A stretch of 13,836 bases of DNA, taken from contig JAYENX010000029.1 in the NCBI GenBank assembly GCA_034722435.1, positions 1 to 13,836 on the forward strand, given 5' to 3'. The translations under genes and the position numbers were made by a program. Position 1 is the stretch's first letter. The number at the start of each line of letters is the position of its first letter. Origin of the DNA: Nanobdellota archaeon (lineage in GTDB: Archaea > Nanobdellota > Nanobdellia > Woesearchaeales > JAHWHD01). The notes beneath the pieces are model-generated. The model worked only from the letters and a program-made list of their open reading frames with translations, ran no database searches and had not been told where the DNA came from. Positions 8,938 through 11,324 of this stretch are shown piece by piece.

Positions 8938-9327
8938 TTATTCGTTTTTAATATCTGCAGTAACTGAGCTTCTGTAAACCTTTGCAAAGCTTGGGGTAAC
9001 AACTATCCAATCATCGCCGAATCCTGCAATGTCTCCATCAACTGCGTCGCATGTCTTTTTTAGTTTGTTAATTGCTCTTTTTAATTCTACCAGATCTTTA
9101 TCTTTTAGAGGTCTAATATTAACAAGTCCTATAGTATATCCCTCGCGTAGAGAATCTAGAATTATTTTTATATCCTCAAACTCTTCAATTACAAAAGGTC
9201 TAACTGTTACCTTTGATTGACCGTCTTTTAATGGTTCATGATTGAGCTCAACGTATTCTTCGCCTTCGTGCTCTTCATGACCGGAAGTTTGAATTTTATC
9301 TTTTAATCGTGAAAAAAACCCTGCCAT
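8938..9327 (-). CDS. sepF: Cell division protein SepF, archaeal type
   Basis: N-terminal amphipathic MAGFFSRLKDKI, then IKIILDSLREGYTIGLVNIRPL, LKRAINKLK and GDIAGFGDDWIVVTP. GGAGGGG SD upstream. Confidence 0.92.
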   Translation of the reverse strand: MAGFFSRLKDKIQTSGHEEHEGEEYVELNHEPLKDGQSKVTVRPFVIEEFEDIKIILDSLREGYTIGLVNIRPLKDKDLVELKRAINKLKKTCDAVDGDIAGFGDDWIVVTPSFAKVYRSSVTADIKNE

Positions 9328-9522: not shown

Positions 9523-9813
9523 ATGGTAACTAGAAAAGGTGGAGCTAGAAGAAAGTCTAGATATAAAATGAAGAAGCCCATAAGAAGAAAGGGCAAGATT
9601 AGTATCACAAGTTATTTTCAAGAATTTAATAAAGGTGATAGCGTAGTTCTTAAAGCTGAACCTGCAGTGCAGAAAGGTATGTATTGTTTAAGATTTCATG
9701 GAAGACAGGGCATAGTAAGTAAGCAAATAGGTAAGTGTTATGAAGTTGCTATAAAGGATCATGATAAAGCAAAGACTGTGATTGTGCATCCTGTTCACTT
9801 AAAGAGGGTATAA
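9523..9813 (+). CDS. rpl21e: 50S ribosomal protein eL21
   Basis: RRKSRYKMKK, FQEFNKGDSV, RFHGRQGIV and KTVIVHPVHLK motifs. Confidence 0.97.
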   Translation: MVTRKGGARRKSRYKMKKPIRRKGKISITSYFQEFNKGDSVVLKAEPAVQKGMYCLRFHGRQGIVSKQIGKCYEVAIKDHDKAKTVIVHPVHLKRV

Positions 9814-9817
9814 AAAA

Positions 9818-10171
9818 ATGAGACCTGAAATAATGAGCGAAACGCCAATTGGAATGGCTGAAATGAAGAAGGATCTTGAGTTAATCAAGAAACGAGATGG
9901 AGAGCTTAATTTTAGGGCTAATAAAACGGAAGAGTATCTAAACCTTTTTGCAGAAATGTCTCCTAAAAAGGTTGAAGAGTTACGTAACAAATTGAATGAT
10001 TTGAATGTACCAAGGCTTAAGCCTTTACACATTATTAAAATCGTTGATTTACTTCCAGAAACTGTTAACGATCTTAAAGTAATTCTACAGGGATATACAC
10101 TGACATTGAACCAAGAAAATATGAAAAAAATCTTAGGTGAGGTTGCAGAGTATCTTAAACCTGCCAAATAA
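9818..10171 (+). CDS. rpo4: DNA-directed RNA polymerase subunit Rpo4 (F)
   Basis: ELNFRANKTEEYL, IKIVDLLPETVNDLKVIL and KKILGEV, in the canonical position after rpl21e. Confidence 0.93.
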   Translation: MRPEIMSETPIGMAEMKKDLELIKKRDGELNFRANKTEEYLNLFAEMSPKKVEELRNKLNDLNVPRLKPLHIIKIVDLLPETVNDLKVILQGYTLTLNQENMKKILGEVAEYLKPAK

Positions 10172-10211
10172 TTTTTAAATTTTAAACATACGAGAAGTAT
10201 ATTAATTGAAA

Positions 10212-10772
10212 ATGGAAAGACGAAGAGCTAAGGAAGATGTTGTAATTGTACTTGACTTTTTACCAAACGGGTATCCGTTTGATTCAAGGCCGAGTTATAA
10301 GAAAACTCCAATAGTGCAAGCTATAGGTAAAGAACATTTTACACTTCTTGAATTGGTTCCTAAGAAAGGTATCTTTTTACAGCCTTATGAAGATGTTTAT
10401 ATTGGTGAAGGTAAAAGAGAAAAGATTCATCATATAATGGGTAAACTTGATGTTGATAAATTGACTGGGACAGCTCGGGCTGAACTTGAGCATGTAGTGA
10501 AAGAGTTAGTTAAAAAGAATGAACAAAGATTTGTAGATTTTTTTAATAAAGCGCAGCCGTTAACAACCAGGATGCATCAGCTTGAATTATTGCCGTCTTT
10601 AGGTAAGAAGCATATGTGGGAAATTATTGAAGAAAGAAAAGAGAAACCTTTTGAATCTTTTGAAGATATCAAGAAACGTGTTAAGTTAATGCCTGATCCT
10701 GAAAAAATTGTAATGAAAAGAATTCTTTCAGAACTTACGGGTAAAGAGAAACATAAGATTTTTGTTGATTAG
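10212..10772 (+). CDS. DUF655 family nucleic-acid-binding protein (OB fold + HhH)
   Basis: VIVLDFLPNG, QAIGKEHFTLLEL, VYIGEGKREKI, FVDFFNKAQPLTTRMHQLELLPSLGKK and FESFEDIKKRV motifs. ATG 10212 is preferred over TTG 10206. Confidence 0.95.
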   Translation: MERRRAKEDVVIVLDFLPNGYPFDSRPSYKKTPIVQAIGKEHFTLLELVPKKGIFLQPYEDVYIGEGKREKIHHIMGKLDVDKLTGTARAELEHVVKELVKKNEQRFVDFFNKAQPLTTRMHQLELLPSLGKKHMWEIIEERKEKPFESFEDIKKRVKLMPDPEKIVMKRILSELTGKEKHKIFVD

Positions 10773-10796
10773 AGTTTTAGTTATTTCTTAGATAAG

Positions 10797-10810
10797 TTTA
10801 TATATTTAAA
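10797..10810 (+). promoter_or_regulatory. Putative TATA tract upstream of the candidate ncRNA
   Basis: TTTATATATTTAAA lies ~25-35 nt upstream of the G-run at 10835 where the structured island begins. Confidence 0.4.
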
Positions 10811-10834
10811 TTAGACTTTTTCTTATACTGTTAA

Positions 10835-11080
10835 GGGAGTTACACGAAAAAAAGCAAAAAGCCTTGCCATTGAGGGGGAGGATGAATGTTATTTGTGTTT
10901 TGTGCTTTTTTTGTGTCCTAGAAATCCGTTTCGAAAATCCTGTGCAAGTCCGGTCTTTTAGGGTTGGGTAAGTGGGATTTTAGGATTTCAATGACTTCAG
11001 GAGGTGATGTGTGCTTCGGTATATATCGTCGGCTTTTCGGAGTCGTACTTGGAGCTTAGACCTTGGCAGGTTATTTTTTC
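10835..11080 (+). ncRNA. Candidate structured non-coding RNA of unknown family
   Basis: 45% GC over 10861-11070 (95/210, manual count) versus very AT-rich flanks. Several nested helices, a C(UUCG)G tetraloop hairpin, 5'-3' long-range complementarity, an upstream TATA and a downstream T-tract. Confidence 0.55.
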
Positions 11081-11269
11081 TTATTCCTCTTCTTGATATT
11101 TCATGGCAAAGAAATCGTTTAGGTTTTTGTCTGTAACAATGCCTGCGTATTCGTCAGTTTTAGCAAGTTCTTTAACTAAATCGAATAGTTTTTTATCAAG
11201 TTTAATTATCATGCCGACTAGTTCTTCCTTGGACTTTTTCATTAGTTCATCTATAACTTTTTGTTCCAT
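11081..11269 (-). CDS. Small hypothetical protein (helical, acidic tail)
   Basis: 62-aa ORF with protein-like amphipathic composition (LMKKSKEELVGMIIKL). No SD seen. Confidence 0.55.
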   Translation of the reverse strand: MEQKVIDELMKKSKEELVGMIIKLDKKLFDLVKELAKTDEYAGIVTDKNLNDFFAMKYQEEE

Positions 11270-11324
11270 GAGACTTAGAAATTGGAAAGAGTATTTTAAT
11301 TTTGTGGAAAAAGAAAATAAAAAA

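Follow-up and report, generated by a model that had tools for sequence, protein, structure and literature searches.

The 13,836-nt contig JAYENX010000029.1 of a Nanobdellota archaeon (order Woesearchaeales, assembly GCA_034722435.1), referred to here as the window, contains downstream of a DUF655 gene a GC-rich non-coding island (positions 10835-11080) that very probably consists of two nested features: a palindrome-associated transposable element (PATE) of 152 nt, and a small RNA gene into which this element has inserted and whose transcript is closed by a bulge-helix-bulge (BHB) and predicted to be circularised. We hold with considerable confidence that the element represents a new DPANN family of PATEs related to the IS200/IS605 insertion sequences (IS), and that the interrupted gene is a member of a new family of BHB-closed small RNAs, which are probably processed into rings. 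In the following, G000 denotes the genome of the window, G001 a genome of the same genus, and G058 and G133 genomes belonging to other families than G000.

The GC-rich island

The island had been singled out in a first-pass annotation of the window as a structured non-coding stretch, and the coordinates and strings quoted there are all present in the sequence. The GC content across 10861-11070, given as 45%, was measured at 45.2%, compared with 21% and 20% in the flanks and 33% in the whole window; as had been stated, no plausible long open reading frame (ORF) exists (none of at least 50 amino acids in 10773-11080), and both a TATA tract (10797-10810) and a T-tract (11071-11079) border the island. 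The view that the RNA belongs to no recognisable family was also borne out: Rfam returned nothing for the window at gathering scores, including no omega or HEARO match, and only chance matches at the relaxed threshold of E ≤ 10, while the uninterrupted homologues described below gave none at E ≤ 1. ARAGORN found no tRNA or tmRNA in the window that would account for the RNA. Identity with RNase P RNA or signal recognition particle (SRP) RNA was rejected, since both RNAs of G000 are located on contig C13 and not on the window contig.

Copies and spread of the mobile element

About 156 nt of the island recur elsewhere. A DNA search of 60 relatives recovered two more copies in G000 (90-92% identity) and at least 13 in G058 (81-86%); nhmmer and a covariance model added two further, diverged copies in G000 (five in total) and brought G058 to at least 19. 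Across the order, 33 of 151 genomes have covariance-model matches. The 18 copies that were aligned are 152-161 nt long, with sharp ends and unrelated flanks. G001 retains the DUF655 gene (80%) and the DNA to the right of the repeat (76%) at the orthologous site, where it lacks the 156 nt. Another copy (C3:22679) has no counterpart in G001 or G002; the empty-site comparisons rest on these two genomes, both unpublished. Contigs of the source metagenome, which is from brine, have a depth of 150-220 over 10833-10996, compared with 25-40 beside it, and their loose ends are the flanks of other copies.

Copies within G058 are on average 95.5% alike, and those of G000 and G058 still 86%, although the two genomes belong to different families. 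This is far above the retention expected of intergenic DNA and suggests a recent horizontal spread, possibly within a shared brine or sediment habitat. No copy was found in viral contigs. Neighbouring copies on shared contigs are co-oriented in eight of nine pairs, a possible strand bias of insertion.

End architecture and guide-cleavage code

The element is too short to encode a transposase and has no terminal inverted repeats, its ends not being inverted copies of each other. TTAC precedes the body in 17 of the 18 aligned copies. The empty sites at two loci (in G001 and G002) indicate clean insertion with no evident target duplication, a 2-nt duplication of AC being possible as the empty alleles have not conserved the target. 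At the left end, 18 nt separate TTAC from an 8-bp hairpin with a TTTA loop; AAAG stands before this hairpin and AT after it. A similar 8-bp hairpin, likewise TTTA-looped and preceded by CAAG, lies 27 nt from the right end, and the element terminates in TGAC. Both hairpins as well as their outer stems exhibit compensatory changes among lineages.

This arrangement is reminiscent of IS608 from Helicobacter pylori, which inserts 3' of TTAC at a distance of 19 nt from its left hairpin, uses the left guide AAAG, and has an AT after the hairpin that forms base triples (PMC3201880; PMC5934647). In IS608, guide position 1 pairs with position -3 and guide position 2 with position -4 of the cleavage site, and the right site TCAA is served by the guide GAAT (PMC3201880; PMC5934647). 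The same pairing rule fits both ends of the element. We counted one lineage per genome, all from genomes not flagged as unpublished, and assumed 8-bp stems when reading the guides. The 10 lineages read at the left end have Watson-Crick pairs at all 30 positions (P ~ 2e-4; 19.6 on average in shuffles), and the 16 lineages read at the right end have them at 45 of 48 (P ~ 5e-5; 37.0 on average in shuffles), whereas guides taken from the wrong end fit at only 15-16 of 27 positions. Five different left and four different right combinations are found among the lineages: apart from TTAC/AAAG, the left ends have TTAT with AAAA, AACA or AATA, ATAC/ATAG, ATAT/ATAA and TATA/TAAT, and apart from TGAC/CAAG, the right ends have TGAT with CAAA or CATA, and TTAC/AAAG. 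In contrast to IS608, the element encodes neither tnpA nor tnpB, its right end combines TGAC with CAAG, the right site lies 23 rather than 10 nt from the hairpin, and the hairpin sequence is unrelated.

Because of the missing terminal inverted repeats, the TTAC target, the similar hairpins and the co-varying guide-cleavage pairs, the repeat is in all likelihood an IS200/IS605-type element without genes, i.e., a PATE as defined in Haloquadratum (PMC3119063). With the PATEs of Haloquadratum walsbyi and the PATE-like elements of Geobacillus stearothermophilus, both derived from IS200/IS605, it shares the small size that precludes a transposase, the lack of terminal inverted repeats and of target duplication, similar near-terminal palindromes, a targeting sequence of 4-5 nt at the 5' edge, a high copy number, and palindromes that are invaded by other mobile elements (PMC3119063; PMC10055086). 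It differs from them in its DPANN host, in the nesting of each transposase-binding hairpin within a longer outer stem, in the far right cleavage site, in that a parent IS with the same ends was not found, and in the existence of shorter relatives without hairpins. For the element to move, a Y1 transposase (TnpA) acting in trans would be expected to produce single-stranded DNA circles of it and to bind both subterminal hairpins, with the 4 nt before each hairpin pairing with the cleavage or target tetranucleotide.

Y1 TnpA genes are found in 55 of the 151 genomes of the order, namely in 20 of 32 carriers of the element (62%) vs. 35 of 118 non-carriers (30%). Several observations nevertheless weigh against the assignment to IS200/IS605. 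Among the TnpA loci examined there is no TnpA-bearing element with the ends of the PATE: the TnpA of G058 is associated with different hairpins, the loci of G025, G003, G141 and G150 have other ends, and a metagenome scan with the left end yielded two contigs, both breaking inside the element, and no parent. The only trace of TnpA found in G000 is a C-terminal remnant on C24. Three right-end lineages violate the pairing rule, the guides were read with an assumed stem of 8 bp, and the hairpins of the window copy are decayed, with mismatches and G-T pairs. The right site at 23 nt past its hairpin (10 nt in IS608) also departs from the IS608 geometry, in which the left site is farther away than the right one (19 vs. 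10 nt), the element having 18 nt on the left and 23 nt plus the tetranucleotide on the right. Finally, relatives of about 60 and 120 nt without one or both hairpins are not explained by the PATE model. The reversed distances between site and hairpin are a difference of geometry within the IS200/IS605 family and not of its defining chemistry.

Variants, remnants and nested insertions

The remnant on C24 (G000:C24:36091-36219; L078) derives from a Y1 transposase of the ~200-amino-acid type that is intact in G141, G150 and others. "Mini" relatives of 55-67 nt (L040, L008, L041, L043, L044, L123-L135; L148:1454-1515) consist of the two outer stems only, without the transposase-binding hairpins, and often retain the end tetranucleotides; relatives of ~120 nt have the right hairpin only. 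A reverse-oriented mini copy in G141:C42 overlaps the 5' end or leader of tnpA. Two weaker matches were discarded: a coding "mini" match in G000:C23, which is probably due to chance, and a 24-nt match in G025:C146, which lies inside a methyltransferase-like coding stretch and looks like chance as well. A low-depth contig from a sediment metagenome (run X2) contains a variant with 4 nt in place of the 91 nt (within 10865-10957) that extend from the left guide region to the right hairpin's loop; this may be a hairpin-to-hairpin deletion of the core as in the PATEs of Haloquadratum.

Insertion sequences of the IS1182 family (DDE_Tnp_1_6) were found inside TTTA loops of PATE-type hairpins, with an apparent duplication of TTTA. 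One of them, in G025:C153 (JAGLMD010000070.1; L005/L046; 1146-1260), splits a copy of this very element, and the flanks of another (L047; JAGVYS010000040.1; 2055-3758) form a different hairpin of the same type. They bring to mind SMR-A elements, for which PATE palindromes serve as targets in Haloquadratum.

A probable small RNA gene closed by a bulge-helix-bulge

When the insert is removed in silico, the remaining 92 nt (10828-10843 joined to 10996-11069) fold with a minimum free energy (MFE) of -32.2 kcal/mol (z = -3.25). The element by itself, folded as single-stranded DNA, has a z-score of -2.69, so that both components are significant when taken separately. The 5' end of the RNA unit lies left of the insert, where 10828-10840 pair with 11054-11069. 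The RNA forms a three-way junction with two UUCG-capped hairpins (P2 and P3), and its closing stem (P1a, P1b and P1c) is a canonical BHB. The homologues in G001 and G133 have z-scores of -3.70 and -2.73, respectively, and the BHB appears directly in their MFE structures: a central 4-bp helix lies between two flanking helices, with a 3-nt bulge at one of its ends in one strand and at the other end in the opposite strand.

A pattern search with the conserved right-hand part matched in G001 and at two sites in G133; the partner sequences of P1 differ wholly between these lineages and the pairing is retained. Exact-pattern searches under-reported the RNA (3 of 401 genomes). A covariance model (R2) built from two identical G133 copies detected homologues of 74-97 nt in 10 of 151 genomes, about 7% of the order as sampled, among them seven genomes that are not flagged as unpublished (G019, G146, G013, G077, G029, G041, G138). 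In 12 aligned matches 96.2% of the cells pair; shuffles reach 78.2%, with none of 500 as high, and controls with slid partners 29-50%. Of the 26 pairs, 19 show changes on both sides. All 11 full-length homologues retain the 3-4-3 geometry of the BHB (hBHBh'), although the sequence differs in each of the three helices; of the flanking helices, P1a varies between 4 and 9 bp and P1c between 5 and 6 bp, and both co-vary. In the window copy two of the four P1b pairs are G-U.

A box resembling the B recognition element and TATA box (BRE/TATA) is located ~33-37 nt upstream of every homologue, and T-runs follow several of them. The homologues do not lie inside tRNA genes, ARAGORN detecting at these loci one tRNA-Arg only, ~60 nt downstream of the homologue in G041. 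The RNA is probably the product of a stand-alone gene of an undescribed family in this DPANN order. This conclusion has to be weighed against the fact that the alignment used for pair counting was fitted to the model and thereby favours the structure, and that the model was built from a single sequence, taken from a genome that is unpublished. G001 and G133, both unpublished, underlie R2 and part of the co-variation. The G133 copies were chosen for the model because a MAFFT alignment that included the interrupted copy was mis-registered.

G133 has four full copies of the RNA and one end fragment, three of them at contig ends (L172/L178, G133:C35 1-26 and 353-434; L173, G133:C38 26-107; L189; L190). 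Two copies are identical from the promoter to beyond the terminator, and the gene may have been amplified or be carried on a repeat in this genome. No copy of the RNA gene was found in viral contigs.

Table 1. Features of the island in window coordinates; RNA helices are numbered as in the text.
Feature	Position	Strand	Evidence and remarks
TATA-box-like element	10797..10804	+	~24 nt before closing stem; AAAG(C/T)TTAAATA-type box equidistant in every homologue; putative promoter
P1a 5' strand, outer BHB helix, pairs with 11061-11069	10828..10836	+	insert-removed MFE fold; 3/4 modelled pairs change on both sides
P1b 5' strand, central 4-bp BHB helix, pairs with 11054-11057	10837..10840	+	structural alignment; 100% of cells paired in family
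5' three-nt BHB bulge (UAC)	10841..10843	+	AAC or UAC in homologues; empty site in G001
IS200/IS605-type non-autonomous element (PATE), 152 nt; putative type	10844..10995	+	repeat copies with sharp ends, empty sites, covariance-model matches, guide-cleavage code, metagenome depth
PATE left guide AAAG	10858..10861		
PATE left hairpin	10862..10881		
PATE AT after left hairpin	10882..10883		
PATE T7 run	10906..10912		
PATE right guide CAAG	10945..10948		
PATE right hairpin	10949..10968		
PATE right cleavage site TGAC	10992..10995		
P1c 5' strand, inner BHB helix, pairs with 11048-11053	10996..11001	+	5/6 pairs co-vary
Single-stranded junction AGGUGAU	11002..11008	+	conserved in 8/11 homologues; with preceding GG Shine-Dalgarno-like GGAGGUGAU
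Hairpin P2, UUCG tetraloop	11009..11024	+	5/5 modelled pairs co-vary
Hairpin P3, UUCG tetraloop	11030..11045	+	4/6 pairs co-vary
P1c 3' strand (11048-11053) and P1b 3' strand (11054-11057)	11048..11057	+	fold and homologue alignment
3' three-nt BHB bulge (AGA)	11058..11060	+	always 3 nt; UGA/AGA in 8/11 full-length homologues, UGU, GUU or UGG in other three
P1a 3' strand	11061..11069	+	fold and homologue alignment
Oligo-T tract	11071..11079	+	likely archaeal terminator; T-runs after several homologues

Consequences of the insertion

The TTAC target (10840-10843) comprises the last base of the central helix and the 5' bulge, so that the insert of 152 nt sits at the 5' bulge of the window copy and separates P1b from P1c. 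It also adds a run of seven T residues (10906-10912) on the RNA strand, which the archaeal polymerase is expected to read as a terminator. The R2 search found no second copy of the RNA in G000. Given the split of P1b and P1c, the added T-run and the lack of a second copy, the gene is probably inactive in this genome. As the sole copy is interrupted, the RNA is not essential, a point that counts against our reading. The pairing of the interrupted copy is still largely intact, with many G-U pairs.

Predicted processing into a ring

The BHB, a 4-bp helix with 3-nt bulges on opposite strands, defines the substrate of the tRNA-splicing endonuclease EndA (PMC7714728). G000 encodes both EndA (PF01974, 102 bits, C58:50304-50564) and the RNA ligase RtcB (566 bits, C25:36993-38276). 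EndA would cut in both bulges and RtcB would join the ends, and the released ring would measure ~65 nt here and 67-76 nt in the relatives. The circular SRP RNA of Thermoproteus, together with other substrates of this kind (PMC4731332; PMC7714728), provides the analogy from which excision of the loop side and its circularisation are expected; we consider it probable that the tRNA-splicing enzymes cut the RNA out and ligate it to a ring. In the circularly permuted SRP RNA of Thermoproteus tenax, in pre-rRNA stems and in the 5' untranslated region of HVO_1309 (Haloferax), the ends of a transcript other than a tRNA likewise form a BHB that is cut by the tRNA-splicing endonuclease, the loop-side piece being ligated into a ring (PMC4731332; PMC7714728). 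Unlike these substrates, the RNA described here matches no known functional RNA, is only ~65-76 nt long as a ring and has a putative promoter of its own, and its processing is a prediction.

Archaea are also known to contain stable circular tRNA introns, e.g., the tRNA-Trp intron with a box C/D guide, which are excised through a BHB and form structured rings. The RNA resembles them in its size range, its predicted BHB excision and the stable, structured ring that would result and might itself be functional, but no tRNA exons surround it. A box C/D small RNA was considered and rejected: a C-box-like GUGAUG and, in some copies, a D-box-like CUGA are present, but the fold separates them (the 3' one lies in the BHB bulge) and they cannot form a kink-turn, and the last A of the C box (RUGAUGA) is not conserved.

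Alternatively, the small RNA might be real but linear, with a closing stem that protects the ends or aids 3' end formation and bulges that remain uncut. The letters of the bulges vary, and a stable terminal stem followed by a T-run would suit a linear small RNA just as well; furthermore, no RNA run among those listed contains the locus, and transcription, cleavage and the ring junction are predictions. On the other hand, rings made by EndA from genes other than tRNA genes are documented (PMC4731332), both enzymes are encoded, and the exact 3-4-3 geometry is retained in all 11 full-length homologues despite their changed helices. We therefore regard a linear RNA as unlikely, though it deserves to be kept in mind.

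As for the function of a ring, its sole conserved single strand is (GG)AGGUGAU, which we take to be the exact complement of the universally conserved 16S rRNA 3' terminus. It is conceivable, although we would give it only a small chance, that the excised ring serves as a circular Shine-Dalgarno decoy. It would then present this strand on a three-way junction that resists nucleases and owes its stiffness to the two UUCG tetraloops.

Other explanations of the island

The repeat might be a carrier of an omega RNA, its right half serving as the scaffold which, with a flanking guide, programs a TnpB made elsewhere. Omega RNAs are indeed often carried by PATEs of IS605 elements (PMC10055086), and the right half of our element is a conserved 75-nt hairpin that ends at the element boundary. 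However, the TnpB zinc-ribbon domain was not found in G000 and gives only sub-threshold matches in G058, with its at least 19 copies, Rfam reports no omega or HEARO match, and the co-varying positions are those of the guide-cleavage pairing of DNA, all of which makes this explanation quite improbable.

Even less can be said for the small RNA being a tiny mRNA in which GGAGGUGAU acts as the ribosome-binding site for the following AUG. A perfect Shine-Dalgarno-like string does adjoin an AUG in most copies; yet the AUG overlaps this string with no room for a spacer, the reading frame is shifted in G001 by an indel of 8 nt, the peptides lack conservation, and substitutions track base-pairing rather than codons. 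Because of the frame shift and the missing spacer a coding role is very improbable, and small ORFs within the RNA were rejected.

That the repeat is a classical miniature inverted-repeat transposable element moved by a DDE transposase, such as that of an IS1182-family element, deserves hardly any credence: in G025:C153 the 40 nt after an IS1182-family transposase gene match the 3' end of the G058 copies exactly, but these 40 nt are flank, the boundary of the IS being an inverted repeat of its own, the IS lies within the TTTA loop of a right hairpin just as its relative in L047 lies in the loop of another such hairpin, none of the IS1182 transposase relatives in the genome contigs has PATE ends, and the repeat has neither terminal inverted repeats nor a target duplication.

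Equally remote is the original proposal of one independently transcribed, structured RNA of ~240 nt, or an RNA switch, spanning the whole island 10835-11080. It drew on the promoter-like box and T-run that bracket the island, on many local helices, and on G-U pairs favouring the + strand. Of this, a structured RNA gene that would use the TATA box and T-tract has stood the test, but the native RNA accounts for only ~92 nt and ~156 nt are transposon, including helices a and b, and the homologues measure only 74-97 nt. The MFE fold of the island does contain helices a (10842-10856 with 10903-10916), b and c, which are real. Helices d and e span the insertion boundary, joining transposon to native sequence, and are due to chance because the partner is absent in the insert-free G001. 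The 3' strand assigned to d (11061-11069) is a genuine helix strand whose true partner lies upstream of the insert, at 10828-10836; helix e had been likened to P4 of RNase P, the RNA of which is encoded on C13. Folded as one, the island has an MFE of -67.5 kcal/mol on the + strand (z = -1.29, 19 of 200 shuffles equally good) and z = +0.08 on the - strand, no better than chance on either. The choice of the + strand as RNA strand was right. The switch is unsupported because no + strand gene follows the island. Last, the 156 nt are a mobile repeat that has copies elsewhere and is absent at the orthologous site in G001.

Genomic neighbourhood

The island is bracketed by the stop codon of the DUF655 gene (10206-10772) and a convergent small ORF. 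DUF655 is the final gene of a conserved archaeal cluster (9523-10772) comprising ribosomal protein L21e, RNA polymerase subunit Rpb4/RpoF and DUF655, upstream of which a SepF gene (8938-9327) lies on the opposite strand. The small hydrophilic ORF (11081-11302, - strand; 62-74 amino acids) has no Pfam match and shares 77% amino acid identity with its counterpart in G001. There, its stop codon lies within the 3' strand of the outer helix of the RNA, so that the two transcripts would overlap tail to tail.

Implications

The call of a "novel structured RNA" may conceal a composite, as removal of a transposon turned a fold of z = -1.3 into a co-varying RNA family; for genome annotation it is relevant that Rfam and IS finders at present detect neither feature. 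The element extends the IS200/IS605 PATEs to DPANN archaea, and its five left and four right combinations provide natural co-variation data for the DNA guide-cleavage code, the same property that has been exploited to retarget IS608. The RNA family, in turn, would mean that archaea whose genomes are very small have a gene with its own promoter that serves no other evident purpose than supplying the tRNA-splicing machinery with a small RNA to be circularised. Its conserved strand with presumed complementarity to 16S rRNA offers a concrete hypothesis: if the decoy idea were true, the ring could bind the anti-Shine-Dalgarno sequence of free 30S subunits or of pre-16S rRNA, and could in this way adjust how these reduced DPANN archaea initiate translation or mature their small subunit.
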